Shown: positions 16,670 to 64,000 of the stretch, piece after piece
Layout of the letters: each line of letters starts with the position of its first letter
Position numbering within the stretch: position 1 is the first letter of the stretch
Program-made: the position numbers and the translations under genes
The notes under the pieces: generated by a model
Databases searched by the model: none
Told to the model about the DNA's origin: nothing
The model's input: the letters and a program-made list of their open reading frames with translations, nothing else
Origin: Amphiscolops sp. MND2022
Taxonomy: Eukaryota
NCBI GenBank assembly: GCA_964187785.1
Contig: OZ076409.1
Location: forward strand, 57,352,001-57,416,000
DNA: 64,000 nt
Direction of reading: 5' to 3'

Positions 16670-17050
16670 TTACGATGAAAAGAAGATGAACTATGCAGTA
16701 AAATGAGTAAAATTCGACAAGTCAAAACTTGCGATGCAAAAACGATGAACTACAGCAAATAACTCGCCAAAATGATAAAATGCAGGACGAAAAAACGATG
16801 ATATATGTAGAAAAACCACATGAAACAACATGCAGTGATTCGCATATAATTAACGATGTAAAAAAGATGAGAAAACAGTTTTCGCAACGTCGCTCGGCCG
16901 ACTGAGGGAAACGTGACGAAGGTGAGATGAAAAATCCAAACGAAACGCTGTTCAAATTAACTACACTCCCACGAGATGTAATAACGATGATTACCGCAAA
17001 AAGACTAGCTGAGAATTGTGACAACACGCAAAAACGATGTGAAAACGATG
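16670..17050 (+). repeat. GATG-N7-GATG motif array
   Basis: GATGAAAAGAAGATG, GATGCAAAAACGATG, GATGTAAAAAAGATG, GATGTAATAACGATG, GATGTGAAAACGATG at ~60-bp spacing. Confidence 0.8.
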
Positions 17051-17360
17051 CTAATTGGAATTTGGAACTCTGAATGACGAGACCTAACAGCAGAAACTAA
17101 TGATCCGCAAACCTAACCTGCCTACGACCTCAATCACTAACTAGTATCTCAAGAGCAAAACAATTCGAGTGCCACATCATTTAACTTGTAAATACAAGCT
17201 ACCGAACTTTCCGACGTAGCCTTTTAATTTTCCCCCCTCCCAGTATTCTCATTTCTCTTGGCAACCCATTTATGATAACAAAACTACTAACTATAATATA
17301 AAATCAAGCAAAGCAATACAAAAGTTTCAAACAACGGAGTTTACAGTTGGATCTCAAACA

Positions 17361-22049: not shown

Positions 22050-23228
22050 TTTGAATGTGAACGAGAATTGCAAGCAACAATCTGAAAAGAATGGAAGAAG
22101 GTGAAAGAAGGAAAGAAATCGACGAATCCAGGAACAGAGAATTTGATCAGTAATTAAATGGCCTGATCAACCATGATTACGGAAGAGCAAATTCAATAGA
22201 AGATTTCAAAGAGCGCGACGCAGCTTGAATGCCATGTTAATCAAATACTTGAAGTCAGAAGATGAAAAATCGATGAACAACTCTCCGATTTCAAATACTG
22301 ACATCACTTTTCTTCTTAGTACAACCAACTCAAGCTTTCTCTGAAAATGGATCGTCCTCTCCTAGGACTTGACAAAAAACGTCAAGTATTTGATTTGTTG
22401 ACAGCTGCCAGTCTCAGATCAATACCGACGAAGTTGAGCGGAAACGCGCAAAGGAAATCGTGGCGATTTTCAAACCGACTTGAATGGAGGATGATTTATG
22501 GATGAGAATGCTGCTGACAACCGGTTGTAATTTCCTTCAGTTATAAATTCAGTCTCAGCCAATCAGATCGAGCAACAATTGCTATGGCGACGAATTCATC
22601 TCTTTCTCATCGCTCAAAAGTCGAGCAGCGGAAGTAACTTTTGACAGTTGCTATGACGACGATTCATCTTCTTTCCATCGCGAGTAAACAAAGCAGCGGC
22701 GCCAGCCGTTCCGCTAAACCAGCATCGATGTCTCGCTGAGCAAACAATTCATCGTTCATTCATCCCGAGAATTTGGATTTAGACGAATGGCGGCGACAAC
22801 TCACTGCGAATTTGTCAATGAAGATGCCTTGAATGTTTACTCAGCGTAGGCGGCCTGGGGGAAAACTTTTCTCCAGGAAATCGAGATTTCTACCGAAATA
22901 ATCAACAAACCGAGCTCCCGTCAAAAGCATGACGACCAATAAAATGCAGATCAGCGGACATTCGATGGGCCAAGAATTAGAGTTGCCGCGTCGAAAATTT
23001 TAACCGAAATCACCCAGGATGATGCCAGAAAATGACGATTACCGAAGGTCCTCTTCTCAGAGAAGCTCTCACAGGACAGAACAAACGAAGGAAATGCCAA
23101 CTCAAGAACAAGCGAAGGATCAATTTTCTCCCTAACCAAACGAAGGAAACAGTCGAAGCCAACGCCGAGACAACCATCCTCTGCACATTTGGCCCCTGCA
23201 CTCTCAGTCCAAATCCCACCCCCGGGAG

Positions 23229-25456
23229 TGTCATGCCAGCATGATGGAAATATAATCTACTAAATATCTGTAATGTAAATATTATGTCTTATGTACTTAG
23301 ATATGGGCAATATGAAGTCATATAATAAGAGCCATGGTTGTGAGCGACCCTACGTTACTTGTACCTTAATCCCTTCCCCCCCCTGAGTGTGAGTTATATA
23401 TATATCTACTTAATACTGAGCGCTCTAGTTCCGGTGTCCGCATAAATGATCTTGCCATTAGCCTTAGATGTGCTACTTTTCTTAAAATATTGGTTTGTCA
23501 CGACAAGGGAGAGAAGTTTTCCGGTCAGACTGGACCGCGAGATATAGAAACGATGAAAGTTATAACTTCTACTAGCTCCCCGCCTCAGAGTTTGTAGTTG
23601 TGACAAATTTCATCAAAAAACACATCACAAATTCATCGTCCAATTTAGTGATGGTTCTGATTTGATTTCATTTAAATCCATCAGCGGATTTACTGATGCT
23701 GTTAACAAAGTTCATCACAATCCCATCTCCAAGATTGCGAATGAACCACGCATGGGACAATAAACTTTACTTTTCATCATAAATCCATCAGCGGATTTTA
23801 CGGGACTCATTTTAGTAAAACTCATCACTAATTCATCGTTATATTTCATGTAGGAACTCACAAATGTGCTTCTCATTTCTTAAGGACAGTAAAACATCCT
23901 TTATTCATCGTCATACTAGCATAGAAGAGAAATGAGAAAGTACATCCTTAACCCATCCTAAAAAAGAGTGATTGCGCTGGTTATCTGATTTGTTTAGTAA
24001 ATCCATCATTAATTCATCATGATTTCACCTTGTAATGAGAATTACCATTTTAGTGGATGAGTTCATCCTAAACTCATCGCTAGTTTGAATTGCTTCGATA
24101 GTTGCTGTTTTAATTCACGAGTTCATCCTAGACTCATCACTAGTTTGAATTGCTTCGAGATTTGCTGTTTTTATTCACGAGTTCATCTTAAATTCATCGC
24201 CAAAACTGATCTGCGCTAGAAATAGCATTTTCTGAGTGGATTCATCCTGAATTCATCGTCATTTTAATCAGTGCTGGAAATTGGCAAATTTTATGGGGAG
24301 TTCATCCTTTTATCATCGTCAGTTTATGTCGTGTTGATTTTCGAGCGAAAAGACCACCATTCATCGCATTTTCATCCAGAGCTAAACTAGACTTGAAAAT
24401 CAGCAAATATTCTGACAAATTCATCGCATTTCCATCTTTAGTTTTGAAGTATTGATTTTAGTGCTAGAATTAGTTGGAAAACATCGTTTTCCCATCCTGT
24501 GATACGGTTTACTCTGGTTTGACTTGAAATTAGTACATTATTGAATGATTTGAGTTGCTATAGAAACCATGATGCTGCGTGCAGGTAATTGCGACATTGT
24601 AAAACGATGATTAATCATAATTAGCATATGTAGATGTACCATGTGGTTCAGCCAACTTGCGGCAGTTCACAACACCGGTCACGTGACTTACCAATTAGCA
24701 CCAACTGGCAATAGCCAATAAGAGGCGGCTGGTAAGAGATTTAGCGTCTTACCAGCCTGAAAAGACACGTGAACTGCTGTAAATTGGACCGCCATTAAAC
24801 ATTACTCAGACCGAATTGCGATTAGCTACCATCCAGTAGGATACTTAACGTCGAATTTCACCAGAAAATACATCTCTATTTCATCACTGAAAACTGCAAA
24901 ATCGCAAGCTAACTACTCTCTCGGTACATCTGCAACTGCGATGAAAATTGGATGAACTTTCCTATTCATCTTACTAATTTCCTGCTACTTTCCTGACGAC
25001 TTGTTTATTTGTACTAATCATCGATAAAACATCTCTGTTCAAATTTAGTGAATTGGAGATCATAAATTTAGACAAAACAGCAAAATACATCGAAATAACA
25101 TCTCAGGTAATCCAGTCTTCACTCAAAATCCTTTTCTCCCATCTCTATGAACTCAGATCAAGGCACTGAACTCAGAAGCGGAAGAATTATTAGTTCCTCG
25201 TTAGAAACACCCGTTCCAACCGATCCAGACATGGCCCAGTCGTCCGGCAATGACTCCGACAACAATGAAACTTCAGATATCTCGTCCCAGTTGTCTGAAA
25301 TAAGAGAGAGTTATGAAAGAAAGATAAACGAACTACAAAATGAGTTTAGCCAACTGAAGGACTTAATGATGGCTGTCATAAGTAAGACAGACAGTGAAAA
25401 TCGACCATCAACTTCGAAAGGTCCTTCAAAGCCGACCCACACGGTTGGGCTCGACA
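23229..25456 (+). repeat. 3' LTR of element A (2228 bp)
   Basis: Direct repeat of 6246-8427 with scattered SNPs, a shorter (TA)n tract and an extra 51 bp at 24812-24862; followed by TSD GGGAC. Confidence 0.97.
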
Positions 25457-25757
25457 GGGACCCTTTGGTCTCCCCGGGTATGGTATGGTACGCGGGAAAA
25501 CAGGAAAAACCTTTTTGGTTCAGTTCGCTAGACCAAATAGTGCATTTTGGTCCAATAATATTTTGTAAGAACTATTTTGGCCAGTTCGTGTGGATTGAAA
25601 AAAAAAGTCACTATAATAGTCGCGTTTCACTTCATGAAGCGCCGACTAAAAATGACAAGTTGGTGTTTAGAATATCTAGTAATCAACTCTCTGCTGTCTG
25701 AGTACTAGCTATTTAAGGCGAACTCTGAAGGTCGTCTGATCTGTACATGCCACATTG

Positions 25758-31100: not shown

Positions 31101-34100
31101 TAAGTCCAGAATTTGTTATGGATTACAACTATACGGATCTGCTGCCAAAACGAACTTGTCGAAACTTGAAAAAGCGCAACGAAGAATGTCGCGAACTGTT
31201 TTTTTTTCAAAAAGAAGAAATTTGATTCTCTACATCATCTTCTTGGAACGAACGAGATTCTGACAGTTTTTGAACTTTTCATTTTTGAGAACATCAAAGA
31301 GTTTTCAGGCAGATTAGGCCAAAAGCACCTAAATCTTTCATAATGCTGGACTCCAATGACGTAAGAACATATGTAACCCAATGGAATATGAAATAATTGA
31401 TGCCGGCGCAATACAGTCTGACTGTTCTCAAGAGGAGATCCTCAGAAAATTTTCATTCGCCTAACTTATAATTGGTTAATGGAGGCAAAATTGATTCGGA
31501 TAGATTTGAGGAAACTATCAACCTGTCAAGTTAAAAAGCTCATCACAAATATAACCGCGAACTATGTAGTCGACAACAAGCATCTCTTTGCATATTACTT
31601 TGAAAAGGAATTATGCTGATGATGAAGTTTTTCGATAGTGGTGCTTAACGTGAGCAAAGTTCACGAGGGCAGTGATTGTTGGAAAACAACATTTCGAAAA
31701 ATTTCTGAATATGGTTCTTCAGGGCAGGAGCTTTGACGAGCCAATAGGCTCTTTTCCTGTCCAGATTTGGTTTCTTCCATTTCAAGTCCTATGTATTTTT
31801 TGTGGAATGATTCCAATCAAATAAACTTTCGTTCTTTCTTCTTTCTTTTTCGTCGTACCGCTTGTGCAAGTCAAAGCGCTGTCGTTGGTAATGACGGTAA
31901 CTGCGACGGGAATGACTACCAAAATCAAGGAATCATTTTGAGAATGGGATTAAAGATCGGAGAGCCAAATGCTGTATTGATCGTAGCGGTTGTATTGTCT
32001 GTGGGCGCTCTCATGAACAAATCCGAGAGACAGCGGCTTTAACATACCTGGAGTTCTCACGACGAGGAGAAACCTGCCAGGAAAGACAAAGGCGGAGAGA
32101 AGCACACCTAACAGGCATGAACCAAGGGACAGTTGTTTTTGTCCCTAGAGGAGTATCGCAGGCTGCCGCCTGCGACGGGAGTTACTACCAATTTCCCCAA
32201 GAGCAGTCAGAAATCAGTCCTTCCTATTTACACCGCAGAAACCTATAGTACATTCGGCTACATGCAATTTGGTCATAATTGTCTCTATTTTCTGTTTTAA
32301 CCGTGCGGAGTGCTTTTAGCTTACGAGGCTATAATTGGGTAAATAATAATCAATTCTGTGCCTGATTTACTGATGAAATGTTGCTGTTCGATTAAGTATT
32401 TTTCTACTAAAGAATGTGAATGTAAAAGTTTGCTGAATTGATAGCATGCAATTGAATACAGTAAAAGAAACGTGTTCAAATGAATTCTCTCTCTAGCTGG
32501 ATGTACTCGCTGTCCTGATGCTATTGACCAATCAGAATGCAGTAAATATTTCTGTTTTAATGTAGCTGAGCGGCCGGGAAGTCCGCCGCGGTGGAAATAG
32601 TACGTGACCTGCACTAGCGCTGTATTTGAGTATATGCTTGTTGCCACACGGACTTATAGTCCACTATGGTTGAAATACAATGCTTGCATGATTCTTCATA
32701 TTTAAACGACACGAAATGTTGTAGTTTAGTTTCCACATATAAAGATGAAATATCGAGACATGTTGCCTTTCCTGGAAGGGCTAACCGCCTAGTTTTTCTT
32801 TGATGCATTCGTATATAATGACGTCACTATGATGTAACTCTGAAAGGAGCTATTTTCAGAAATATCAGTAACTTAATTTAGCTGCATGACCCGCAGAATT
32901 TAGTTAGTCACACTCAACTAACCATAAACAGAGGAGACTGACGGTTATGAGTAATATTGTTTGATACAAACTCGATACAAGCAAGTTGGATATTGATCTT
33001 ATACATATTGTACCGAACACTCTGCAAGTCGATCTTTAAAGTGAATAAATTCTTCAATGCCTTCAACTAGAAGGCAGAAAGCTAAAGAGAGACGCTCTCG
33101 GCAGCTAGACATCATGTCTGATGTAGAAATTGTTGATATAATGCTAGGGAGTTACTCAAGGGATGATGATAGAAATACTCAGTGTGAAGATGAATTGAAT
33201 TTGGACTCAGGGTCGACTAGACCACAACAAAGCTCAATTTGGTTGGAGAAGATTTTGGATCTCTTTTTAACACTAATGATAGAGAAAATAATGAAATGAC
33301 TATTGAAACAACCAGGATGATTAGCGAAAAAATTTACAACTAGATGTCTAGGAAGCTTAATGGGATTAAGTCTAGGCTGAATTCCCAAATACAAGACGCA
33401 ATTACCACTGCAATTGCCGAGAAAGTGCTTCCTTCCATCCAAAATACACTTGGTGCGCAGGGGAGAAGTAATTTCACCGAATGAAATTGGTGGAGCGAAG
33501 GTCCAGTGGGCTACAAGGGAGCCCCGGAGCCGCAAATCCCCAGAAAACCTGGGAAAGTCACCCCAAAACGGGCTTTACACGAGAAAATCAAAGACAAGTG
33601 TCTAGAGAGAGTTCAGGATTTTTTTACAGGCGAACAAAATCGCAACAGGGTAGAAGAGATTAATGGATGTTACGCTTGAGTATTTCTGCTGCGGGGTGCA
33701 CTCTGTCAAGATTTTAGTTAGTTTCATCATGTTGTGTTGGTTGCTCGTTTCAGGTACGAGGCGTTGTTGATGCTGGTGCTGTATGGCCTCTACATTTTGC
33801 TTATGTACATCAACGAATGGGTTGCCGTTCACGTGGACTCTTTTTTCAGACGGTGCTGTCCCCGATTTTGCTGTCCCAAGTCGGGCTACGAAGATCTATC
33901 TAAAGAAGATTCTTCACGCAATTCCACCCAGGTGATTAGTTTCAATCGATGATTTTGAAGACTCTTAAAGACTCTTAATTTGAAGACTCTTGGAAGATAT
34001 ACCAAATTTAATGAGTGCGGTGGTCAACTTGGCTATTTTCATCTAGGAGATTTTAACCTAGGATATTTTAACTCAGGGCATTGCAACTTATTAACTCTTT

Positions 34101-37100
34101 GTTTTCGTTTAAATAGTTCTGGTATTCGTTAGCGATCTCTTCTTGACAAGAATTTGGCTAGATAATAAAAATGTTTGGAGATTTGTTAATCAACTATAGT
34201 ATGTTTCATTCGTGTCTGTACTGAAGATCTTGTTGAGAATTCATTTCAAATTTTTAATAGCACATTCTGCAATTTTGAAATTTCAGTCGTCCTATTCCTG
34301 AGTTTAATGTCGGTTACTGCGGATACAGTCAAATGAAGTACATCTAAATGTTTTCTCAATGATCGAATAAGCATACGAAACATATCTAAGAGTGCACCCC
34401 GTTTAAGCTGGTATTACCTCGTACCACCAGCTCATTTTGGGGTTAGTTTTAAAAATGATTCGTAATTCTATAACTGCGTTTTATGTTTATCCCAGGGCTC
34501 GAAAGTTTCGTTGCTTCCGCTTCTGAGCTGCCAGCCTGGATCTAGTTCTAATGATGGTGGCCAGGAAGATGATATTACATCTGCTGAGAAAACTAAACTT
34601 CTGGGTCCAAAATTCCTCTCATTGCAGGACTCACTCAAGGCATCTCTACAAGCAAGTCAGTCACAAGGTCAGCAGTTTTCTACTTTACCATTGCTCATGG
34701 TAGGTTGCTTGAGCATTTTTTGTCGAAACCGCAATTCGAATAATTCTAGAAATAGAAAAATCAACGCTTCCGAACCCTCCTTTGGAAGCAGAACTTATTT
34801 CTGTTTTAAATTATTCCCATACGAGCGAAAACTTAAGGATATGACTTCAGCAAATTGATGTGAATTGGTATCATTTGGTATATGAGAATACAGCGAAAAA
34901 CGAATTTAAAGAAAAGTATCGTTGTCCGAGTATCACAAAGCCTGAAATTGCCAGAAAATGGGACTCTGTTGTTTTCCTGACATCATTAAAGTGCAATGAT
35001 GCTGCCACAACTCAAGTTCATATTATGCAACCGCATCTCAACCTAACCTGTTTTAATTTGTTTTCAGCTGATAAGAACATCCAAATAAAGGGAATCAACT
35101 GTGACGTAGAAACCGTACGAGATGAGTTACTGGTGAGTGAACAGGAAAGCCCCCTTAAGTACCCCTCTGGATCTTCCGTGTCGTACAAATGTCTCTGGGT
35201 CATTTCCTTTCCGATTTATCTGGCTCTCACCTTCACAGTTCCAGACTGCCGTAAATATGACAACAAACTTCCGGTTGTCATCGTTTCATTTTGGTTTTCC
35301 ATTTTCTGGATTGCCATCTTTTCCTATATCATGGTGTGGATGGTAACAATGATAGGCTTTACACTCAGTATTCCAGACACCATAATGGGACTAACATTTT
35401 TGGCTGCTGGAACCAGCGTGCCGGATGCCATGGCCAGTGTTATTGTGGCACGCAACGGCGAGGCTGATATGGCTGTGTCGAATTCCATAGGTAGTTTTGG
35501 CAAAAAAGTGATTTAATCATGATGAAGTGATATTACCATTTTTACTCTGCCCTTTTTGTGGAACAAAAATGCCCGAGTCTTACAGTGACTATATTTTTTT
35601 CTCCAGACCACAGAGCTCACACTGAAAGGTCCACTTTTTACAGAATTTCACTAGGTCTTCCTACTTTACTAGCAAGCTATCTCTGGTGCTTCCAAAGGGT
35701 ACCGCCTTTGTTATCATTGTTTTTAGAGCTTTTGTCGTTACTAGACAACTCAGAAGGTTTGCTCATACTGTTTTTTTGGCATTGTGAGACTCTTTCCAAA
35801 AAGTTTTTGATGTCGCCGAAGGGTCGCTTTGGTTATTTTAATTTTCTGCAACCAACTGGATGATTGCGTTTTCCCCTCTTGCGTTTTTCAGCACTGTGAG
35901 ACTTTTCTCTAAAAGTTTTTTATGCTTGCAAAGTTAGAGAAAAATCAAGGTCCCTCATTCGGCATTGCCATTCTTCATTCTTTAGCAAAAACAGCGTTTT
36001 GCGAGCATTTTTCGGGACTATGTGATTTTTCGAAGACATTTTTTGAAAAAAAAGAAACCGAAAAACGTTTTCTCCACTCAATTTTCCGTTTTTGAGGTTT
36101 TCTGTTAAGGAAATTTGTTTTCCAAGCCTTAAGGGTGACATCTTCGGTTATTTTCTGATCCTGTGGGGCTTATGAGAGTTTTCTCAAAACCCGTTGAAAC
36201 GACCTACGGTTTTTGAAAGAAAAGGTTTGATTTTTTTTATAATATAGGTTTTTCTGCCGTTTTCAGTTCAGAAAAAGTTAGTTTCGAGTATCAAGGGTAT
36301 TTTTTGGCACTGTCTGATAATTGAAAATTTTCAATAGTTGGCCCCTGAATATTTCAAACATTTTGTTCTTTTTGAACCTTGAGCGGGTCGTGGACTTGTT
36401 TACTCCTAATCCATCATTGCCAATTTTTAAGCCCCGGAACTCCTTTTAGGGAAACAAAATATGAATTGGATCATTTTTTCAGCTCAAAGTAAATTCTCCA
36501 AACCAATCCAACTTCTTGTTAGAGAACGTATAAATTGTGTACTTCTGAAATCGAGAGTATGATCATTTTAGAAGAAAGTCTTAACTGGGCCCTAGGGTTA
36601 CAGAGAAAATGTAAAATAAAGATGTGTATTGAATTTGGTACTGTACTTGCTTGCCTAACAAATTGTATCAATTCATGTCGAAATTTACCGGGAAAAAATC
36701 ACTTTTTTACAACTTAGGCCACAAAACTCTGTAAAATTCTAAATAAAATGCTCACCTTGACTGCTCTTCAAAAATGTCAGAACTTTGCGAGATCGTTTAA
36801 ATTGAGATTCATGTTTGTGATTCTCACTTCAAAAATTTCATTGTAGTTTTGAAGCTACTTGGTTTTTTTTCAATTGAGCTTTCGCTCAATTATTTTGTTC
36901 AATTGGCTGTAACCCATTTTATTTTTCTGGTGGGCATACTAATATTTTTAGTCGGCGCTTCATGAAGTGAAACGCGACTATTATAGTGACTCTTTTTTTC
37001 TTTTTTTTTCAATCCACACGAACTGCCCAAAATAGTTCTTGAAAGTTCTACACAATTTTATGGTCCCAAATTGACTCATTTGGCCTAACGAACTGAACCA

Positions 37101-49961: not shown

Positions 49962-51732
49962 TGTCGCAGGCTGCCGCCTGTGACGGGAATAATTACACTA
50001 CGACGTTCGAACAGGACATCACACCGGGAACGCTACCAATATATTGAAATACAAACTGCAAACTTTAGAAACTTGTCCTTGTTTAAATTTAGTCCCTGTT
50101 TTTACTCATCCATGCAATGATTGTATATATAGATAAAATCACTATTAGTCTGTTAAAGTTGTACAATTTGGAAACATCCAAATCAGGCTATTGTGTAATG
50201 AGTGCAGTTGAAATGCAAAGTTATCGGATTGAAAGCAATATAAACAGAAGCAACTGTAAAGCAGTATAGAAAACGTGTTCGCGTGATGTACAGTGCTATT
50301 CCAAAAGCGTCACTTGAGCTCGTTGTCCTGACCAATCACATCGCTTCAATTTACAAGATTATTACAACTCTAGTATAGTGGTGGCCGAATAAGGCCAATT
50401 AACTTAGTATACACCGTTCAATTCACACTTTGGCCAAACGGCCGGTTCCGGCCATCTTGATGAATTATGTTGATGCTAAACTATTTGTACTTATGATTAA
50501 CCAAATTAGTCAGGAAATACTCTAAACTTGTTCTTAGTGCTAAATAATACCCTTGTACCTCTCAATGGGTTAAATAAGCCCAGTGTTAACTTGAAGGCCG
50601 AATAAGGCTTTTTACCCTCTTCCCTTTAGTGCTGAATTAATAAACCGGATTTGGCCAATTTCGGCCTTATTAGAAATTACTATGTCTTAATAGTGTAGTG
50701 ATATTTTAAGCAGACCAAGCATGTAATATTTGATTTTGTTCCTCTCAGTGCTGAATAGTAGCCGCGTGGCGGCTCGTGCCATCATAACATACAAATGATG
50801 CGAGTTTTACATTCCGTCAATAGACGATAATATTTGTTGACAATAGGATAATGACATTTTTCATGAATATGCTGTTTGAAGTTGCGATATGTATACCTGT
50901 CAAAATGTTATTTGTTTGATGTTGCGCTTCTGAGAATCCTGTAAATGTTAGAAATTCTCCTAATTGGGATTTTGTTGAAATATGTACTTTGAAGTTGTTC
51001 ACTGATATGTGAAGATTGTAACCAGAGGTATTTGTTGACCTAAATACCTTTCAAAATGTTGTCTGCTAAATTCCCAGGTTATGTAAAATTTTGGAAAATG
51101 TCATGTGCATTACATACCTTATGATATTAATCTTGACTAGAAATATGTGGAAAATGTGAGTGTCATCCACTCAGGGGTATAAATACTGGTATTTAGCCTG
51201 AGTGGGACACAAATCATATTCAGCGCATCTAGTAAAGATTGTTCTACAAACGGTTCCACTGTTATTTTCCGAGTTGAGTAATTCATTGTTTAATTCGGAC
51301 TTTCCTCAATGCCTACTACAAGAAGGCAGAAGAAAGCAAGGAAATCAAGAGGCTTAGAAATCCTCTCAGATATTGAGAATCTTGACATCATGCTAGGTGA
51401 AAACCACTTCAATGAGACTGTGAGTGTTATGAGTAATAATCTAGAAAATGAAGGTGAAGTTCATACTCTAATCATATGAATTCTAACGCCAGGACAAATG
51501 CCGTTAACGGCCAAAGTTATCCGGACGTGAGTTCTCAAGCTGAGATCAACCAATTGTCAAGTGAACTAAACTTTAGAGTATCTAGAGAAATTGATGAGAT
51601 GATCAATTCAGTCAGTGTTCAGATTCGTTCGGATTCAGAGAGCCATAAATGACGCTATAAGCAATCAGGTATTGCCCCAAATTCAAAATGCCATTTTGCC
51701 GGATCAGGACGTGTGACTAGAAAAGGATGGGA
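49962..51732 (+). mobile_element. LTR of a third, B-related subfamily, cut by the assembly gap
   Basis: Starts TGTCGCAGGCTGCCGCCTGTGACGGGAAT; TATAAATA near 51178; degenerate gag N-terminus from 51309 (MPTTRRQKKARKSRGLEILSDIENLDIMLG). Confidence 0.8.
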
Positions 51733-51932
51733 NNNNNNNNNNNNNNNNNNNNNNNNNNNNNNNNNNNNNNNNNNNNNNNNNNNNNNNNNNNNNNNNNNNN
51801 NNNNNNNNNNNNNNNNNNNNNNNNNNNNNNNNNNNNNNNNNNNNNNNNNNNNNNNNNNNNNNNNNNNNNNNNNNNNNNNNNNNNNNNNNNNNNNNNNNNN
51901 NNNNNNNNNNNNNNNNNNNNNNNNNNNNNNNN
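51733..51932. other. Assembly gap (200 N)
   Basis: Run of N. Confidence 1.
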
Positions 51933-52162: not shown

Positions 52163-53814
52163 TGTCGCAGGCTGCCGCCTGTGACGGGAATTATTATCAA
52201 ATTCCCCAAGAAAATGTAGAATCCAACCCCCCACCCGGAGTATTGCCCATTTGTAAGACTTACGGTTAAACAATTCAAAACTATGTTTAATCTTATCCCA
52301 ATAGTGCTATTTTATATTTTTACCGTGGCGGACTTGTGATCCACACGGCAACATCTTAGTTTTCATTTTTACCTTACGGGAATATACTTAATTGATGAGC
52401 CCTGTGCCTGTTTGATTGATTAAATGAATTTGTAACATAGTCAATTGAATGTAAAATAATGCGTACAATGCTTGCTGAATACTAGGAAACGTGTTCAAAT
52501 GAACGCTTGTTGACGCCCAGCGTACGTACCGGCCTTATTTAAATAAACCAATCAGAGTGCTGTACATTCTTATCATTATTATTGCTGTAGCCACGTGGAC
52601 CGAAGGTCTACCGTGGTGTTATTAGCTGCCAATTAGTCGATGCTATTATGTTTACTGTAGCCGCGCGTACTGTCAGTCCGCGACAGTTACTACTATTTAG
52701 AGCTGCAATTTAAATAAACTGATGTAGTTACTCGGACCTTAAGTCTATTAGTACAGTAATAATGGACGATTTGTTTGTTATGATACTTGTCAGACATGAA
52801 ATATTAAAGTAAACATGTAACTATCCAAAGCAAAATGTGCTAATTTTAGAACTAATATCACACTTACAGACCATTGGTCAATCCCTCCATTTTACCCTGA
52901 TGCTATATTTAGCTGTAATTTGATGTAGTAATATTGACGTCATGTATCAAAATATAACCCGGGAGCTATTATTAGTAACATGACCAGCATAATTTTGCGG
53001 GTCATGCAGTGTGAAGTATAAATAGCGGGGACCCGTAGGCCCCAGGATGATTGTTTCTGATTTCATGAAACTATCAACTATATACACTGCTGATTCAATT
53101 TGTTACGTTACGAGACTTATTGGAATAATAGACCGTTTGTCAATTCAATATTAATCTCCAAAGTTTGTTCAAAGCCATCAACAAGGAGACAGAAAGCCAA
53201 AGAGAGACGCTCTAGGCAACTGGACATAATGTCTGATGTAGAAAATGTTGATATAATGCTTGGAAGTTACTCTAGATGTGATGAAGAGAGTAACATTAGC
53301 GAAAATGAAGGGAATTTGGACTCAGGGTCTAGTAGACCACAACAAAGTTCAACCGTTATAGGAGAAGATTTCAGATCTTTACTTAATACCAATAGTAGGG
53401 AAAACAGCGAAATCACAATTGAGACCACTAGGTTAATTGATGAGGAAATTTCAAATCAAATGTCTAGAAGACTCAATGAGGTCAAAACTAGCTTGAGTTC
53501 TCAAGTCCAGGAAACTATCACAGCTGCAATAAAAAGTACAGTGCTTCCGGCTATTCAAAATACGCTAGAAACGCAGGGGAGACTTGATTTCACCATGGTG
53601 GACCGAGGGTCCAACGGGCCACATCCGAGCCCAAGGCCAACCGATTTCACCGTAAGGGACCGAAGGTCCAGTGGGCTACAACGGAACACCGAAGTTGGAA
53701 ATGCTCAGAAATCGTGGGAAAATCGTCCCAGAACTTGCTTTACATAGAAAAATACTAGACTGAGGTCTAGAGAGGGTTCAACGGACTCTAATAATAGTGA
53801 ACAAATTCACGACA
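52163..53814 (+). repeat. 5' LTR of element B (1652 bp)
   Basis: TGTCG...CGACA termini, PBS directly after, collinear with the solo LTR at 32154-33647; TATAAATA near 53017. Confidence 0.85.
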
Positions 53815-54941
53815 TGGTGACAGGAGCCAACCCTACCCCACATATGGTTCCTGAGTTTCTCACTGGATGTCCCATGCAATCCCGAGATCCCCTGCAACGT
53901 CAAAATTCCACCAATGACGAGTCTCAGGTTACATTCCCCCAGGTCCCTGAGACTACAGGACCAACTACTCCTTCCGATCCCATTAACCGCCTTGCAGAAG
54001 TATTAGTTGGCATGAACAACCGTCCATCAGCACAAACATTGATGTTACGCCCAGTCAGCACAACCACACTGACATTCGACGGCAAATCCGAGAAATTCGA
54101 ACTCTTCGAAGATCTCTTTCACACTATGATAAAAATGCAACCTGATATGACTGAAACAATGAAAATTAACCATTTTCATTCATTGTTACGAAAGATTGCG
54201 TTACAAACCTTTCGCAAGATTAACACGGCAAACAGGCAAACTCTGGAGGACATATTGGCAGTATTTCGTCGGAAATACTTCAAACCTGAGTCCCAGGCGA
54301 CCGCCAAACACAAATGGCACAGATTGGTGTTTGATCCAAATACCATGAAACTGCCAGACTTCCTTGAGGAGTTAAATCAAGGAGCTGAAAAAGCGTTTGG
54401 CGAGAACGCCCAGGCCATGATCGATAGTCTCCTCTACGCCAAGCTGCCACCAAAATTGAAACGTTCTGTCAATATGGCGAGACTCGAAAATGCGACCTAT
54501 GAGGAAATTGTCACCCATTTAGAACGAGAACTTGAACTCAATGGACTTGAGGAGGGGGACGACATTCCAGTACCAACAATGTCTGCTGCCCCTACAGCAA
54601 CACGACCGGGAACTGGCCTTCTTTCCTCTGGCATCGATCCAAACATTACTTTCAACTATTGCAAGAAACCAGGTCATATCAAAGACGATTGCCGCAAACT
54701 CAAACGAAAGGAGGAACAACGCCGCAATGAAGGGCAGGATACTAAGAAAGAATATCCCAAATGTCCGACTTGCGACAAAACGAATCACCCGGCGGAACGA
54801 TGTTGGAAAGGCGCTGGAGCCCACCTCAAGCCCAAAAACCTCAAGCTGGAGGACACCACCACAACCACCGATCAGTCCACCAGCCAAGATGATATAAAAA
54901 ACAAACAAACTACGTCAATTTTAAAGAACCCAAAAAACTAG
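53172..54941 (+). CDS. gag: Gag of element B; LTR-encoded N-terminus (start codon mutated, in-frame TAG at 53745) plus core ORF 53814-54941
   Basis: ORFs 53100-53747 and 53814-54941 are in the same frame; knuckles (F)NYCKKPGHIKDDC and CPTCDKTNHPAERC; core similar to gag of A; ends at slippery site A AAA AAC TAG. Confidence 0.88.
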
Positions 54942-57900
54942 ATAAGCCACGACTCCAAATTAATGATAAACTCCGTGTCCGACAATACATAATATCTGAC
55001 CCTTCATATGTCCATTACACCGAATATTATACCTCTCTTAAAGAAACATCATCAGCTGACTGGCAGCAGCAAATGAAGACTCCCCCTACCACCCACACCA
55101 CTTCGGACCCTATGTCCAACAGACTACAAACTGATACTACTACGATACGACTTATACCTCTTATTGATCACTATAACCCATATTACTCTGATTCTGACTA
55201 TGGTTTTGACCCCTATTGGGACGTCAATTGCTACAATCAACATCATCTATACTTCTACCGCAATTTCAACAAACCGAGTCACAACATAGAACTAGATTCT
55301 AATGACATTGACCAAGCCTTGAATATGGTCCTTGCTAAAGCCCGAGTTGACCCATGGCAACACGGATCCCACCCTATTCATCACACGACCCACCCCGTTG
55401 ATGAAGACGAACTCCACCGTGCGGGACCACAGGTCTCTCTGGCTACAGCAGTTACTGCACGTTTCGTGAACACCCTAATCACAAGAACGGGCGAACCAGA
55501 CTATGTACCGCTGACAACCAATCTCGGTCTCAAATATAAACGACGAATGCTCTATTTTCCGATGGATTTTGGCGAACTAACATTAGATGGCCTTGTAGAC
55601 ACGGGAGCGCTATCTAGTGCAATCCCAGAAGCTGATCTACGTAAAATCCGATTACTAGCCCCTCAGTCCATTGTGAAAGAGGGCCCGGCCCCCAACTTCC
55701 AAATCATGGTTGCTAATGGGCAGCTGGAGACTCCAAAGAGCACCGTCGAACTGAAGTTTGAAGTCGGCGATATTGAATTTCACGAAATATTCATAGTCAT
55801 AGAAAAACTCACCAGTCCTTTGATTGGTCTTTCGTTCCTCCAACGGAACAACACAATTCTGGATATGAGACAAGGAGTCCCGAATTTTCCCTTCTTCTCA
55901 ATGAAATTGAAAACTGCTGATCACAAGTATACTAACGTCATGGAACCCATCTACATTAGAGAGGATGTAACCATCCCACCTAATGGCCGACAATCGGTCC
56001 TTATGGCTTCACAACTGTACGAGAAAACTACAGTTACTGGGATCCTTCAACCGAGCAATAATCTCACAGATGATGGCGACATCGCATTCTGTGCTGCTCT
56101 AGTCACCCTGACCAATGGTCAGGTATCATTCCATCTGAACAACTTCACCGACAGTCCGTACACCCTCAAGGGGGCACACAGGTGGCTAATTTCACTGTCC
56201 TCACGCCAGAACAGATGCAATATGTCAAGTCTATTGATCTGGTGACCACATGACACCTTTTACAAGACAACCCTGAAAACCCGCTTATTATGCAAGTAGC
56301 TTGATCAAATCTCCTAAACCTGAGGACTCCAAAGACAACTACTGGTTTCCAACACCAGAAGACCCCGGGGACCCTCAACATCACACACCAATTCAGAAAA
56401 GGATTCTATCAGAACTGATCAACCTCCAGGAATTAGAAAAACTCAATCCTCAGGACGACCCTGAGTCGAGACGTCAATTCTTATCCAACTTCGACTGGAC
56501 TGACTCTATGCTCCAACCTGCTGAAATAGCTCGCATAGAGGACCTACTTGTCAATTTTTACGATATTTTCGCTAGGCATCGCTTCGACATAGGCATGAAC
56601 GAGGACTTCAATGTCAAATTAACACCGAAAGATGATTCTCCGGCCTATAGTCAAATTTTGCCAACGCCCATAAATCTCAAGGAGGATATCCTTGTAGAAT
56701 TGGCCCTATTGCATCGCTTTGGGATAATTACAACACTACCATTCTCCAAATACGCGAGTCCCATTTTTGCACAAAAGAAACCCAATGGCAAAATGAGACT
56801 TCTAGTCGATTTGCGCAAAATTAACAACCTGATCTCGGATGACTATATTAACAATAATCATCCAGTGAGTACACTTACTGATGCAGCCCAACACATGGCT
56901 GGGAAAAAGCTATTTTGTAAATTGGACTGTTCGCAAGCTTACCATTGCCTACAAATGGCGGACCAACGGTCCATTGAAATGCTTGCTTTCAACTTCGCCA
57001 GCAGAACATTTGCATATCGACGATTAGCACAAGGACTTAGTAGAGCCCTATCGGCCTTCTCAAGCTTCATGCCTGAATATTTGGACAAAGTTATCAAAGC
57101 CGACCAATGTGCTCAATATGTTGCTATCGGTATAGCTGCTAATGATGCCGAACAGCTTATCAACAACCTTAGGGCCACATTCCAATGCATTCAAAAAGCT
57201 GGATTGAAACTCACAAAGCACAAATGTCACTTTGGAGCAACGGAAATAGACTTTCTGGGACGCACCATCACTCCCGCTGGAGTGAAGCCACAGAGACCAC
57301 GGGTTCAAAATTTCCTAGAAAATACGAAATTCCCGAAATCCAAGAAAGCACTACAGCGGTACTTGGGATTTTTGAACTATTACCGGAACTACATCCCAAG
57401 ACTATCAGAAAAACTAACACCGTTTTTCAAATTGCTCACTAAAGATGAAAAAGTCCTACTAACACCGGACTTTTTGGAAAAATTTACCGAGATAAACAAA
57501 GCTCTTGATCGATGTTGTGAACTGGCACTCAAACAACCCTTACCGAACAAGCAAATAGCCCTCATGACGGATGCCAACTTTTCGGCCGCGGGGTACGCAG
57601 TTCTCATCGAGGACGATCCACTTGAGAAGTACACTTCCACGAGGAAAGCTTTCGCACCAGTAGCTTACGGATCCAAGACCTTTAGTCCTACCCAGTTAAA
57701 AATGTCAATCTATGCAAAAGAGTTCTTAGCAATTTTCTTTGCCTTCAAGGAATTTGGACATAATTTTTGGGGAACCCCAAAACCGGTGATTATACTCACA
57801 GACAACAAGTCCGTCACACGATTCTTTCAAACTAAAATTATTCCGCCGACATTATGGAATGCTTGTGACTATGTGATCCAGTTCAACTTCACAATAGCAC

Positions 57901-60039
57901 ATATTCCAGGCAAAAACAACACAGCGGCCGATTATCTGTCACGTCTCGAAATCTCGCCAGAAGAAATTAATCCTCAGAATTAGAGAGGATATCCCTACGA
58001 CACCGATTGAATTACATGTCCAATCAGCCGAGGTTTCCGAAGAGGAACAAATCTTTTATACCGAGGATGACGACGAGACGGAAGAACAAATCTTACAGGG
58101 TAAAAAAGACAATAGGGATCATCCATCAAATCACTTACCTGACATTTCATTCGAAAAATTTACTACACACAAAAGTGACTATCACAAACTTTGCACGCTT
58201 CAAAAACTATCCTACCCGAACTCTATAGCAGTCGAGCAAAACAACGACGTCATTTTGCAACAATTACGCCTAAAAATACTGAAAGAAAGCTATTCTGAGA
58301 CCATCCTCCTGCAAGATACTCGTTACCAACATTACTGTCGCCAAATGGACCGACTGTCCGTTATGGATGAAATTATTACGAGACAGTATTTTGATGAAAC
58401 AGGAGCTGTCAAGTACAATCAAGTGCTATTACCAAAACATCTGGTCCAAGAACTACTCGAATCCCTACACGGCAAAACCAATAAAAACTCTGGAATATCC
58501 AAGATGCTCAGAGAAATTCGTCAAAAATTCTATTATCCCGGGATTGCAAAAATTGTTAAAAAATGGGTTCAGGGCTGTGAAACCTGCATAAAAGACAAGA
58601 GAATTCCCAACTCATCCATAACGCCAGAATTACTCAACTTGCCTGAATGGGACTTAGGTCCAGAAGATGCAATGCAAATTGACTTATTACCAAACTTGCC
58701 CCCCAGCGGAGGTTATGAAAACATCATAACTGCAATGGATGCGTTTTCAAGATATCTTTTTGCATACCCAGTTACCGACGCTTCGGCCACAAACACGGCA
58801 AAGGTTATTTTAGACATAATGACCAAACATACTTACTTGCCCACCACATTGATCACGGACAAAGGGACGGCCTTTACGTCCAGATTAGTTGCTGAAGTGG
58901 CTCAAATTCTCGGAATTCACATGAAATGCGCGACTACAAAACATCCGCAAACAATTGGCAAATTAGAACGTACTCATGCCAGTCTCAAAACAAACCTCAA
59001 GATGGCCTCAGGGGACTACAGGCGACAGTGGCATAAATATTTGCCTTTAGCGGTATTAAACTATAACACGACTTATCACGCCACCCTGGGTTGTGAACCA
59101 TCCCGAATTGTTCACGGACGAATCCCGTATAATATTGTGGATCACAAATTGGGCCTTAATCCTAACCCAAAGATCCTACCGACTACAGATTTTGCAGACG
59201 AATTTCAACGACGCACGCAGATACTACTAGATTCTACCAAGAAAAACATCATGCAATCTTATTTGAAGTACAAAGAGTATTATGACCGGAAGGCCAAAGC
59301 GGCCCCTTTGAAACAAAACGACTATTGCTTTATACTACAACCTATCGCAGATCACCAAGGATCAAAAATACCGTTCCGAGAATACAGATGGACTGGGCCC
59401 TACATCGTAGAAAAGGTTTTGCCGAATCAAAACTACATTGTTCGGAAACTCAATTCTAATGAAACGCAAATTTTACACCGAATTAGACTACGTAAATACG
59501 AACCCAACACTGTGCTACAAGACATTCGACCAGAAGGCAATTTACAACCGGACGATGAAATTATTTTACCGCAAGACGACTTGTATGTCATTACGTGGGA
59601 AACCAATTTTGGCGAATTCCCTAATTCCTCGGATACAAACGCAATTCCTACGAACCGACATAGCCTACACAATTCTAGCAATACTGACACTGATCCTATG
59701 ACGCAAGAGGAAATTTTCACCGACGTGGACCTTAGGTCCACCGGGCCTCATCATAAAAAGGGCGCCAACGCCCCGGATAACAATTTCTCCGGCAAGGACC
59801 TTGAGTCCACCGGGCCACACCAAAATGATGATTTTGTCTTGACTGAAAAAACGTGCTCAGACGGCTTAAATGACTATTCTGATGACCAAAAATCATTAGG
59901 AGGGAGCGATACTATCGTGCCCGAAGTATTAGAAGAGGAAAACGATGAAGTGGTTGTTAACAATGAAAGCCCTAGGGGAGGAAAAAATACCCTTCGACCT
60001 AACCCCACCCCCAACTATACTGATGAATACAGATACTAG
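54938..60039 (+). pseudogene. pol: Pol of element B, disrupted
   Basis: VDTGA protease, RT with damaged catalytic motif (YVAI in place of YVDDI), RNase H, integrase with WTGPY; frameshifts/stops near 56170-56300 and 57965. Confidence 0.93.
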
Positions 60040-60218: not shown

Positions 60219-63200
60219 TTAAAGCTTAGCAGATTTCGAACTTGTTTTGCTGGCCTTCGTAACTGCAGATCCTTCTAACTCTGGTTCATTTTGCTGCACA
60301 GTATTTTTCCCGAAGGAAATTCGAACAACCTTCGGAGAGTTGCGGATCCCTGATTGACTGGTTCCAGCTCCAAGTGAGGTAGACGCTTGGGAGCTCAGGT
60401 TCTCCCTAATTTGTCCTCGTCCAAAGTGATCGATGCAGTCCCAGGGACTGTAAGTGCTGCCAAGCCCAGTGTTCCCAAAAGTTTTTTCCAGATCAAGGAA
60501 CCGGGAAATTGAGGAATCAGATGTCAAGACATCCAGTCCACGAGAGACGTTCCCAAGAAATGACTGAATTGGTGCCACCACATCGAACATAGTGCACGTT
60601 GGGTCATCAGTCTTTACGGAGCCAAATCTAACAGGGGGGAAAACTGAATCTGGGCTCGTCCAAACACAAACAGCTAAGACGAAAGATTCTGGCCAGGTGA
60701 CGACGAGTCTTCAGAGCTTCCTGTCCAGAGATGAACGCAATCGCATCAGCAATCAACAACTTCGGCTGTTGCAGATCGGGGTGAAGGCGTCGCAACTCGT
60801 CAACAAACGAGAGAAATTCCTCCGTATACAAAAGTTCTTCTGAGGGGTCGAGCACTCCACGAAGTCTGAAGCTAGTGAATAATTGCTTAAAGCAATACGT
60901 AGCCTGATCGATTGGGTCCACCAGCAGTATCTCGAGGTCGAATGAGCCTAGGCCCCTAACGATGTCGGAGGTGAATCGGCTCAGCTTTTGGGTAGCTCCA
61001 AGAAGATAAGCGACGTAGGCACGAGCAGACCGACCAAACTCCTCACGAATGTTAGCTGTGACCTCCTCGAGACTCAAATCTTTGTTCTTTTCTTCGCCTT
61101 GTTCCTTCTCGGCTCTATGCCGGCATCCAACGTCCAGGCGAGCCCCGAGTTTGGAACGAGCAATGAAGTCGTCTACGACAAGAGCTTTGGCGTCTGGAAT
61201 AGAGAATTTGAGCATCTCTTCAAAATTGTTGTCGTCAGGAAGACTGCTGGGGCGAACGCATCTACGAGCAAGCTTGAAGAGAAATTGGCACAGCTCTTTG
61301 TAAGTGTGGAAGCCTCTGTCACGTCGAGACTTCAAGTTCAGCGTGAAGCTATGGACATCTGGAAAAGACACTAATAAAGATCAAAGCCTAACCTGTACCC
61401 TAGAAAAGTGAAACCCCCACTTACAATCCTGGAGAAGGCGGTAAAATAGTTCAATCCGACTGGGGAAGAGACTGTCGTACACTATAGACCACTCCAAATT
61501 CTGTGGCTGAAACCAAAGAAATTTTGTACCAATTGGGACATGGAGTACCCGGGACTACAGAGAAAATAGGTTACCTGTTTGCGGACTCCCTGCATCTCTT
61601 GAAATGGTGCGTTTTTGCTGAGGTACGAGTGAACTTTGGGCCAGTTGTCCAGGAGCTCCCGACACAAAGGTGGTAGTCCGCTAATGTCCAGTTGACAGGT
61701 TCTGATAGCCTAGAAGAAGAGGAGAATCATGTGTTACCACGTCATCATAAGACTTGTAAAGGGAATAGACCCAATGTCAAGAATCATGGGTACACCCAGA
61801 AACTTGAAAATGTGATCCTGAAACTAAATATTTCGTACCTTAGAGAGTTCGGGGGAGAGCAGTACCCAGCAAAGTTCCTCTGAGGGATACAACAAGGTAT
61901 CGCAGCGTGGAGAAGAAGTCCACCCTCCCAAAGACACTCTGGCTCTTCCTGTGCATAAGTGGGGGCAAATTGAGCTCTTCGTAGCGAGGAGGACTTTGCA
62001 CACTGTAGGGACTGTAAGGGCTTCCATCCACTAGCTGCACAGTTTTGGCGCTACTACCAGTACAACTGACAAGAGCGGGCTTGGTTGAGATGGCACCCAT
62101 GATGTATGACACCAAACTGATCTCAGCATCAGTTTGGCCCTGTATCCTCCCGGTCCGCTTGAGGAAGACCCGACACAGTTCGCTGTCTCGCCAGTATCGT
62201 ATGAAGATGAGAACGAAGGCACCATCATTCGCAAATTCGATCGAGTACTCTCAATTGGAGTTTACTTGGGAGGCAATATCACAGATGATCTCGTGGAACA
62301 TGTGATGGAACAATACCTGAAACAGAAAGACGAAGACGGTTACCACTGGATACCACCTTGAGAAGCAGAGTAGACTACTTCTAAGAAATAGTAAAAGTTT
62401 ACTTACAGTCAAGCGCTCTTTGCTCCAGTTGAAATCAGTAAACAGAGCCTGGTGGTTCACGATGACCCCCACGTCACTCCAGAATAACTTCAGCACTTCA
62501 AGATCGCCATACGAAGGGAGAAATCGGCCCAGTACTGACAATTGGATGCGAGCTCTGCTATCGGCCGATGAAGCCATGTAGTCCATGCCAGACATGTACT
62601 CGTCATAGAAGGGAAGCTTTTGCCCGCTTTCTATCAGCTCAACATCAATAAAGTTTGGCAGCTCCAGTTCTAAATGGTAAGGGGTTAAAACCTTCCCGTC
62701 CTTTCCTCGCACTTGGTGAATCTTGTTTTTAGTGACCGGATCGATTTTGTAGAGGTACTCGTACCTCCACCTTTGGTCTTTCCTCAGATGTTTTTCGGTG
62801 GAGTGGTGACGCAGAATTTCCCTAGCTCCTTTCCCTTAGATGGAAATATTGGCCTTACAAACTTGGCAATAAAATTTGTATTTGTTCCACCTGGGGTCTA
62901 CTGGCCCAGAGACAAAGGTTCGCGTCCACTCCATCCCCTTGAAGTACGCTTCCTTCATGATTTTGCAACTTCGGGTCACTTTTCGTCTTGCCCCTTGGGA
63001 AGCGGAACTCGTTGCTTGTCGCCCTCGCTTGCTAGTGGTTCGTTTGGAGCGTTCCTGCATTCCTTCTGCCTTCAAGGAAGCCAAAGTTTGTCCCCCGGGA
63101 CTGTCAGCGCAGTACTCGAGTGCTAGAGACCCTGAGTCCACTGGGCTATAACTTGTGCGCTTTGTGGAGGCACTTTGTGGAGGGGGAGCAATACCATCAT

Positions 63201-64000
63201 GACTGGGAGCTTCAAATGAGTACCCAATGCTGGAAAATTCGTCATCACTTTGTATAGCTCCGCTTGTGTCGCTAAAACGACCGGGAGTTTCGCTCCTAGT
63301 TCGCCGCTTTCCAAGCCCACTGGGTTCTGTCGAGGTCAAAGTTTGCAGGGATCCTGGTCCCAGATTCAATTCACTGGCTCTCTTAATCAGATCTTCAAGC
63401 GCACCATGAGCCGTCCGAACAGTCTCTTCTGCCACAACCTTCAGAACGCTGCTGATTTGGTCTTCTGTGAAAGCTATAACAGGGTGTCCTCTTGGAAGGC
63501 TTGAAGGTTCGACGTTGGCAAAGTACTCTTTGATTAGGGCCCGGCCACTTGACTTGAGGAAAGAGCTGTGATTAGTACCCTGTGTGACTACCGGTGCAAA
63601 GGCGCTATCTAAATCACCGGACCCAAGAGGGACCGCATGCCGCTTCAGATTCATGGCTTGACCTATAGTAGATCCGCCAGGATTCGTGGTAGACTCAACG
63701 TCAGTTTCTCGACCAAGTTCCGACTCGCTGTAAGTTGACGTTAAACAAGCAGCTGTATTGGAACGCTTGGCTCCAGGGCCAAATTGGGTTGTTCCAGTAC
63801 TAGTGGACGGAAGGTCATGGAGACCAGCTTTGGGAACCGGCAAAACTTCGAAGTTAGAAGAACTTTCCATTCTGGGCCTTTTACTAATCTCTTGGTTTGC
63901 CTTGTCACCTGCAGGGCTGGAAGCAGTTAGTGGCGGTTCGAGGAAAGTTACTATTGGATTCGGCAATTCTTGATCAGTAAAGTCAGAAAGCACGTTCAAC
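60219..64000 (-). pseudogene. Antisense spliced accessory gene of element B (BED-like finger, hAT-like body), with stops/frameshifts; 5' end outside the window
   Basis: Exons 62407->63999, 61839-62316, 61575-61709, 61425-61506, 60219-61370 with GT-AG introns; finger CQVC-X16-H-X5-H with an in-frame TAA at 62836; alignable to the gene in element A. Confidence 0.8.

Follow-up and report, generated by a model that had tools for sequence, protein, structure and literature searches.

A hAT-like gene antisense to gag-pol in Gypsy elements of Amphiscolops sp. and its candidate palindromic target sites

Why should a retrotransposon keep, on the strand opposite to gag-pol, a gene that resembles a DNA transposase? 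The question is raised by a 64,000-nt stretch of the genome of Amphiscolops sp. MND2022 (contig OZ076409.1:57,352,001-57,416,000; hereafter the window), in which two Gypsy elements, A and B, are found. Element B has, on the minus strand and tail to tail with pol, a four-intron gene some 1,320 codons long. Positions 60219-64000 of the window hold the 3′ part of this accessory gene, and a candidate ATG lies 533 bases past the window end. A first-pass annotation had claimed the same gene for element A and had taken it for an old, vertically inherited module of a retrotransposon clade and not a chance passenger. The analysis described here leaves little doubt about the architecture of the gene and its hAT origin. 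More tentatively, at a little under an even chance, the sequence data suggest that a Gypsy clade domesticated a hAT transposase as a trans-activator or anti-silencer, with a palindromic code private to each lineage in the long terminal repeats (LTRs) and gag-pol, and that the LTR and the regulator form an identity module that swaps pol.

The antisense gene and its introns

Do elements A and B carry the same gene? The sequence blocks quoted for the two in the first-pass annotation all lie on the minus strand, and in a multi-lineage alignment they occupy shared columns. The finger has the claimed spacing, C-X2-C-X16-H-X5-H, and the X16 of the window B copy holds a TAA stop that had been left unmentioned. 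The three introns at equivalent positions and phases in A and B, with one extra intron in B, were also found as described, and the LTRs of A and B are unrelated as stated, with no blastn match at E≤1e-8. The pairwise alignment that had been proposed as a check was weak for the window copies alone: their finger exons gave no BLASTP match, and the spliced proteins scored 61 (z=3.9), below the 77 of the top shuffle among 300. The window B copy is broken by two stops, one of them in the finger, and two frameshifts, and the A copy has a single premature stop (17508-17510). Uninterrupted A and B copies reached z=8.3, and the profile comparisons were significant (A-B by hhalign, probability 91, E 9.4e-7, 340 columns; A-C, E 3e-12, 630 columns; B-C, E 1e-36, 633 columns). 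By these sequence comparisons, the A and B accessory genes are homologous; the homology follows from the uninterrupted copies and the profiles, and the window copies alone would not prove it. One uninterrupted copy, L010, is 96% identical to the window B gene, and of the 47 copies modelled, 24 have no break.

How widespread is the gene? The genome was searched with the finger exon of each of lineages B, A and C, and also with an intron-free relative; up to the scoring limit of each search, every candidate scored was a match (150/150, 150/150, 150/150 and 51/51, respectively). In total, at least 501 scored loci belong to four lineages, A, B, C and D; first-look candidates number in the thousands and are not to be taken as copy numbers. 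Forty loci spanning the finger-exon diversity were fetched, picked by the finger exon alone, together with two lineage-D loci. A Gypsy integrase lies on the opposite strand within 10 kb in 38 of the 40 and in both lineage-D loci (40 of 42). The exceptions, L115 and L122, have uninterrupted lineage-A accessory genes, and no integrase or reverse transcriptase (RT) was found within 10 kb of them; it is possible that they are non-autonomous elements retaining the accessory gene. A word-index search with the last exon gave no match among longer proteins. In profile searches beyond this genome, the matches listed (120 of 127, 150 of 887 and 105 of 105) were just ENA proteins without Pfam marks, and none of 82 pattern matches in JGI metagenome contigs or of four in IMG/VR was a relative.

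The protein starts with MDx[FY]xG in 49 of 120 relatives. In one B element, a GT...AG segment of 33 nt that leaves the reading frame intact stands right after the accessory ATG (L021:2480-2533, minus strand). The N-terminal MDxxxGS...F..F.L stretch may therefore be a conserved peptide or a 33-nt GT-AG mini-intron, both of which keep the frame. A separate observation concerns a sense open reading frame (ORF) of about 290 aa, here called ORF3, seen just upstream of the B 3′ LTR (L021:3641-4498, plus strand) and also at L029:6444-7310 and L055:4099-4941 (both minus strand). Its N-terminus is acidic, and in B it has a conserved H/C-rich C-terminal stretch (C-G-x-P-N...G-D-C-x-V-C). ORF3 has no Pfam match, and its Atlas scores are below 0.8, with zinc-ribbon leads. 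A sense ORF is also present before the 3′ LTR of lineage C, at a comparable site.

The intron models, 47 in number and reference-guided, rest on genomic comparison. The position of intron 1 (88-217 nt) is the same to the codon in 46 of the 47 models, and that of intron 4 in 44. Lineage A has introns 1, 2 and 4, lineage B has all four, lineage C has introns 1, 3 and 4, and lineage D has none in the core. Three observations validate the junctions. In a DNA alignment of nine lineage-C copies, conservation stops at the GT and returns past the AG, with freely varying lengths; intron 4 is exactly missing in L105, L109 and L110; and the intron-free proteins L138, L139 and P0153 align colinearly over all four junctions. 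Genomic comparison thus shows that the accessory gene has spliceosomal-type introns. Such losses point to a spliced antisense RNA that is now and then reverse-transcribed. Introns in antisense orientation would be unseen by the spliceosome in the genomic RNA, so that they could outlast reverse transcription. An occasional loss may come from recombination with the cDNA of a spliced message, and transcription of the accessory gene may begin at the element's 3′ end.

The predicted protein and candidate target sites

The four zinc ligands (C, C, H, H) and three nearby residues are invariant in all 33 aligned proteins. Sequence searches of Pfam and the PDB yielded nothing beyond sub-threshold finger matches; for zf-BED, the match was one below the cut-off in the A exon (E 0.08). 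The 11 residues ahead of the first zinc histidine differ among lineages; they are near-fixed within A and B and more variable in C and D. The first 500 residues of the B protein are rich in S, T, P and acidic residues, with a net charge of -24.

What kind of protein follows the finger? The model of the N-terminal half (pLDDT 67, pTM 0.37) has the finger, helices, and then three strands, a helix and a strand as in RNase H folds. Foldseek placed Hermes first (8edg, E 5.7e-3, prob 0.87), and Hermes chains made up six of the first eight rows. In a wide structure search, generic RNase H/ASKHA folds came on top and Hermes was found at rank 49, with residues 3-322 matched end to end to Hermes 15-266. 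For the model of the C-terminal half (pLDDT 73), Foldseek gave no match, and residues 1-270 were matched to Hermes 331-578 at rank 2 of 48,161 (VIA Z 6.0, rmsd 5.9, 177 residues). For P0153, all seven named rows among the ESM Atlas matches listed are hAT-related families (0.81-0.84). The hAT fold assignment comes from this colinear agreement of sub-significant signals on one family.

Is it an active transposase? Conventional hATs exist in this genome (150 of 150 scored PF05699 candidates match), and in two of them, L140 and L141, the D, D, CxxH, RW and E motifs look intact. These two are not close to the accessory gene, whose profile gave no significant match to either. A DUF4371 search of the genome gave no match anywhere, control included. 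The catalytic positions were placed by predicted structure or secondary structure and by local likeness to L140. Across the 33 proteins, with the columns anchored on L140, D1 is variable (E/A/R/K/Q/S), the D2 site reads xG with no Asp, and the third acid is not conserved; no acid is shared at the beta1 end, past beta4 or within the C-terminal loop. CxxH and RW are not at their expected places in these proteins, and a Trp near the RW position is present in lineage A only. One site reads IRDGAS in a genuine hAT of this genome, IRGAS in lineage C and CTGSS in lineage B. In Hermes, CxxH and the Trp of RW are essential, according to the accessible part of the source (PMC5225508). So the accessory product, judged from the models, would be a hAT-like protein and not an active hAT transposase.

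If the finger binds DNA, where might its sites be? The palindrome GGACC-N3-GGTCC was first spotted by eye in element B, and the statistics came afterwards. There are 10 copies per single-LTR element in window B (0.4 in shuffles) and 9-13 in each of the B elements (0.1-0.4 when shuffled). The motif occurs 3-11 times in 15 of 15 B loci and once in 27 other loci, with a mean of 7.9 per 10 kb in B loci versus 0-0.1 in A, C and D. An unbiased scan of all 4-mer dyads placed it at the top in each of eight B sequences, with a corrected p of 1e-9 for window B. Within gag-pol, its density is 2.35 per kb versus 0.2 in the host, and 16 GAC-N5-GTC sites are found in 6.8 kb of B gag-pol. The B dyad has neither a G-U strand bias (145 vs 130, p 0.4) nor an extended stem, which fits a site in double-stranded DNA; a reading as RNA hairpins is not favoured for the same reasons. 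Lineage C has a dyad of its own, TCCG-N9-CGGA (mean 12.1 versus 2.4 in shuffles and 1.4-2.5 in other lineages). In B and C, the lineage's own dispersed palindromes parallel the lineage-specific finger helices, which suggests that they are candidate target sites. Two BED domains bind a quasi-palindrome cooperatively, and the counterpart helix of Hermes enters the major groove, in the accessible text of PMC10368747.

In lineage A, most of the significance of a GATGAA-rich motif disappeared under a higher-order background. The A LTRs contain a 60-bp tandem repeat rich in GATGAA/TTCATC (7081-7222 and 24059-24200), and the A spacer has three GATGG-N6-CCATC dyads, spaced by about 140 bp (15055-15351).

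Descent and possible function

Has the gene descended together with its elements? Accessory and pol trees were made from 42 elements; L019, L055, L098, L104, L105, L112, L115, L122 and L136 were left out (pol absent or short within the retrieved sequence, a deletion, or many breaks). Lineages A, B, C and D are each monophyletic in both trees, with identities between lineages of 15-26% for the accessory protein and 51-64% for pol. The approximately unbiased (AU) test rejected none of the three topologies for the order of branching among the four, in either tree, so that the congruence is one of membership and not of order. Within A, B and C, the mean accessory identity is 61-76% versus 94-96% for pol, there are no well-supported splits in common, and all four supported pol splits contradict the accessory tree. 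Sampling across the finger-exon diversity exaggerates how far the accessory gene has diverged in comparison with pol, a bias on which the reciprocally discordant pairs do not depend. L118 and L123 differ little at synonymous sites in pol (proportion of synonymous differences, pS, 0.03) and strongly in the accessory gene (pS 0.76), and the reverse is true of window B and L010 (accessory pS 0.06, pol pS 0.55). In the L010 element, the LTR and the accessory gene are of type B1 (92-98% to window B), and pol is 93-99% identical to subfamily B2, whose U3 cannot be aligned to that of B1. In lineage A, the non-coding spacer tracks pol (90-97%), and the accessory gene is at 65-74%. These comparisons show that the LTR and the accessory gene were inherited as a block and that pol was exchanged. 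The claim of vertical inheritance therefore stands at depth, where pol and accessory trees agree on the four lineages, and falls within lineages, where pol is reassorted and supported splits conflict. On the sequence evidence, inheritance is vertical only at depth, and strict vertical descent is not supported.

Is the gene maintained by selection? The median ratio of nonsynonymous to synonymous divergence (dN/dS) over 14 unsaturated pairs is 0.084 (11 A pairs), 0.065 (one B pair) and 0.117 (two C pairs), and the accessory pS is 0.6 or more in 223 of 251 pairs. In each of A, B and C, dN is lowest for the finger region, and the C-terminal two-thirds of the protein diverge fast (dN 0.21-0.50 versus 0.02 for pol). 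These estimates show that the accessory gene has been kept under purifying selection in four lineages. Together with the antisense context and the monophyly in both trees, the low dN/dS bears out the view of the first-pass annotation that this is an old module of a Gypsy clade and no chance passenger.

What might the protein do? The ancestor of the Gypsy clade would have captured a hAT DNA-transposon gene, oriented antisense, between pol and the 3′ LTR. The protein may oligomerise and set paired fingers on the palindromes of its lineage, as Hermes does on subterminal repeats. Its acidic low-complexity N-terminus may activate transcription or hold off silencing chromatin, acting in cis as well as in trans on every copy within the lineage. 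In the accessible parts of the sources, transposases activate cognate copies and dead transposases turn into regulators (bioRxiv 10.64898/2026.08.24.746577), and VANC proteins co-diverge with their target repeats (PMC5735166). I consider it about as likely as not that the element retains a catalytically dead transposase to serve it as a sequence-specific activator or anti-silencer.

Several points weigh against this proposal. The sign of regulation, activation or repression, is constrained by no result. Every fold score is under the significance line of its tool (Foldseek E>0.001, VIA Z<8, Atlas<0.9; pTM 0.37 for the N-terminal half), sequence profiles do not reach genuine hATs, and PDB sequence searches give nothing meaningful. 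No hAT family of Pfam matched, in a Pfam version without the newest hAT families, and PF05699 gave nothing at E≤1 with the last exons or full-length P0153. Since there is no significant hAT sequence alignment, the catalytic mapping depends on secondary structure and local motif likeness. The C dyad has a strand asymmetry (42 vs 117), unlike a purely symmetric site, the lineage A dyad is weak (5.4 vs 1.2), and lineage D, with two loci, has no clear one. The sites in the loci of one lineage are homologous, so that the loci are not independent replicates, and a host factor or the sense ORF3 product could bind the palindromes instead. The linkage of LTR and accessory gene, based on six B and four A elements, is also expected by adjacency alone.

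Is the regulation perhaps negative? A self-encoded repressor, or a copy-number or immunity factor acting on the lineage palindromes and limiting its own or competing elements, is unlikely. In its favour, the finger, dyads and helix are neutral on sign, binding at the many sites within gag-pol could block elongation, and old accessory alleles on near-identical pol fit frequency-dependent selection. However, the acidic S/T/P-rich N-terminus fits activation, the lineages are highly abundant and have young copies with LTRs 98-99.6% identical, and the precedents of transposase derivatives encoded by transposable elements are activating in the accessible parts of the sources cited. Somewhat less probable is a particle or integration helper that binds palindromes in the cDNA and serves nuclear import, tethering to chromatin sites, or the bridging of ends for the integrase. 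Sites along the entire element, both LTRs included, and constraint on the whole transposase scaffold and not the finger alone agree with such a helper, and the accessible text of PMC7264820 proposes a nuclear-import role for plant antisense ORFs. Yet the free swapping of pol among accessory alleles 25-55% divergent speaks against a tight allele-specific integrase partner, and the integrase and the 5-bp target duplication are ordinary.

The fast-diverging C-terminal two-thirds, the weak or absent dyads of A and D, and the sense ORF before the 3′ LTR in B and C would suit another alternative, namely protein or RNA contacts against host silencing (e.g., as a decoy), the palindromes being unrelated sites of a host factor or ORF3. 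This alternative is doubtful, somewhat more so than the helper: the finger and helix are the most conserved part, and they are lineage-specific in a way that matches the lineage-specific motifs. Finally, a nested decaying hAT insertion, a chance passenger or a still-active transposase, as the broken window copy and the many conventional hATs might suggest, is highly improbable and largely refuted already by a dN/dS of about 0.1 with saturated synonymous sites, introns conserved across 15-26% identity, an unchanging position and orientation across 40 of 42 loci, the lack of a conserved DDE and the lack of a match in sequence to either of the two genuine hATs compared.

Element structure and known systems

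The features of the two elements are listed in Table 1. Element B is a complete Ty3/Gypsy LTR retrotransposon, with LTRs, a polypurine tract, a 5-bp duplication and the order of pol domains. Its 3′ LTR, 97.9% identical to the 5′ LTR, lies 2,428-4,078 bases past the window end and is preceded by the polypurine tract AGGGGAG, and the target duplication CAAGG is found on both sides of the element. Its Pfam domains are, in order, gag-asp_proteas, RVT_1, RT_RNaseH, Integrase_H2C2 and rve. In both elements, the gag frame starts within the LTR (53230-53814 and 8115-8430); thus, the 3′ LTR also holds a gag-start ORF.

Table 1. Positions, in window coordinates, of features of elements A and B (PR, protease; RH, RNase H; IN, integrase).
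Feature	Position	Strand	Remarks
Element A	6241-25459	+	LTRs 6241-8430 and 23224-25459, 96.1% identical
Element A gag	8100-9626	+	from ORFs and Pfam
Element A pol	9614-14803	+	from ORFs and Pfam
Element A accessory gene core	17361-19918	-	exons 19918-19361, 19234-18749, 18629-18434, 18298-17361
Element A introns	19360-19235, 18748-18630, 18433-18299	-	phases 0, 0 and 1, respectively
Element B 5′ LTR	52163-53814	+	TG...CA, 1,652 bp; start of gag inside
GGACC-N3-GGTCC in element B (≤1 mismatch)	52597-59808		52597, 53600, 53657, 55105, 55424, 56960, 58347, 59727, 59796
Element B gag-pol	53230-60039	+	PR-RT-RH-IN order; split over several frames; from ORFs and Pfam
Primer-binding-site position (TGGTGACAGG...)	53815-53830	+	immediately 3′ of the element B 5′ LTR end
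B last exon	60219-61358	-	C-terminal part and a part resembling the helical insertion domain; frameshift close to 60640
B intron 4	61359-61424	-	phase 1; in A, B and C; exactly missing in 3 of 18 B models
B exon 4	61425-61506	-	
B intron 3	61507-61574	-	phase 0; in B and C, not A or D; the extra intron of the first-pass annotation
B exon 3	61575-61709	-	covers the region of the hAT RW motif, motif not conserved
B intron 2	61710-61838	-	phase 0; in A and B, not C or D
B exon 2	61839-62316	-	RNase H-like strands without conserved DDE acids; TGA 62251-62253; frameshift near 61870
B intron 1	62317-62406	-	phase 0; common to A, B and C; not in D
B exon 1	62407-64000, continuing past the window	-	S/T/P/acid-rich N-terminal region, CCHH finger, helical region
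B BED-type finger C-X2-C-X16-H-X5-H	62788-62868	-	TAA stop 62836-62838 within X16

Other sequences of the window were also noted. A third, more distant Gypsy-like element with broken RT/RNase H frames lies at 1-1500. Degenerate pieces at 31990-32202 and 33050-33524, 73-76% like the B 3′ LTR region, are probably the leftover of another B-lineage element. A 223-aa frame on the plus strand (34845-35516) is probably a host exon or gene fragment, and it contains a motif that I take to be typical of Na/Ca(K) exchangers. Upstream of element B, there is an LTR/gag-start-like fragment (51145-51932), 69-75% identical to a stretch near another element, and a 200-N assembly gap (51733-51932) just before the element.

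How does the accessory gene compare with known systems? In order of parts, it resembles the hAT transposases (Hermes; DUF4371/ZNF862/FAM200-ZBED5-like): a finger, a helical region, an RNase H-like core, a helical insertion and a C-terminal part are predicted, and Hermes is the top structural neighbour of both halves (rank 1 in Foldseek, rank 2 in VIA), at sub-significant scores. Unlike them, it has no conserved DDE, CxxH or RW and no PF05699 match, is borne by a retrotransposon and has a long acidic N-terminus. The ZBED family consists of host-domesticated dead transposases. Likewise, FAR1/MUG and DAYSLEEPER have, in the accessible sources, lost their catalytic residues and retained the DNA-binding domain under purifying selection, as the accessory gene appears to have done. 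In contrast to host-domesticated transposases, the domesticator here would be another transposon, and the gene stays mobile and multicopy.

Plant Ty3/Gypsy elements have antisense additional ORFs, namely Grande gene23, RIRE2 and Retand TRP28/PF04195 (accessible parts of PMC7264820 and PMC11963269). These ORFs have no similarity to other transposable elements, and their origin and function are stated as unknown in the accessible text of PMC7264820. Like them, the accessory gene lies antisense between pol and the 3′ LTR and is conserved by lineage, and the plant products are described as likely nuclear and DNA-binding. It differs from them in its predicted hAT-like fold, the CCHH finger, the four conserved intron positions and the candidate cognate sites. 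TRP28 is confined to flowering plants, as far as the source text goes, and a Pfam search of the accessory gene gave no PF04195 match. Bdelloid rotifer LTR elements offer an animal parallel, being Gypsy-like with captured genes and modular exchange; their ORF3s are env, GDSL, DEDDy, coiled-coil or transmembrane proteins, and the accessible text does not contain 'transposase' or 'intron' (PMC5408684).

VANC of VANDAL and TnpA of Spm, in the accessible parts of the sources, also pair an element-encoded protein with dispersed lineage-specific motifs, a pairing that is a candidate here (strong in B and C, weak in A). TnpA is, like the accessory gene, transposase-derived (bioRxiv 10.64898/2026.08.24.746577, accessible text), and the accessible main text of that source does not mention retrotransposon, LTR, Gypsy or Ty3. 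VANC and TnpA belong to plant DNA transposons and act on their own class; anti-silencing here is a proposal. Neither was matched by the accessory proteins among the Pfam or structural results listed.

What would the finding mean? Plant Gypsy elements are known to carry additional antisense genes, and a hAT-derived, intron-bearing version appears to be new: no such gene in an LTR element was found in the literature outside most subscription journals, Repbase and supplements. Here the source of an antisense accessory gene, a hAT transposase, is identifiable, and its catalytic disabling is visible. The explicit candidate sites (GGACC-N3-GGTCC for B and TCCG-N9-CGGA-like for C) make the function testable by one binding assay. 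If the proposal is true, self-encoded sequence-specific anti-silencing would extend beyond the DNA transposons of plants and include a retroelement of an animal, and the conversion of a transposase into a regulator would have taken place inside another mobile element. These lineages would then provide a natural series of diverged finger/site pairs and would document how a retroelement has lost introns.

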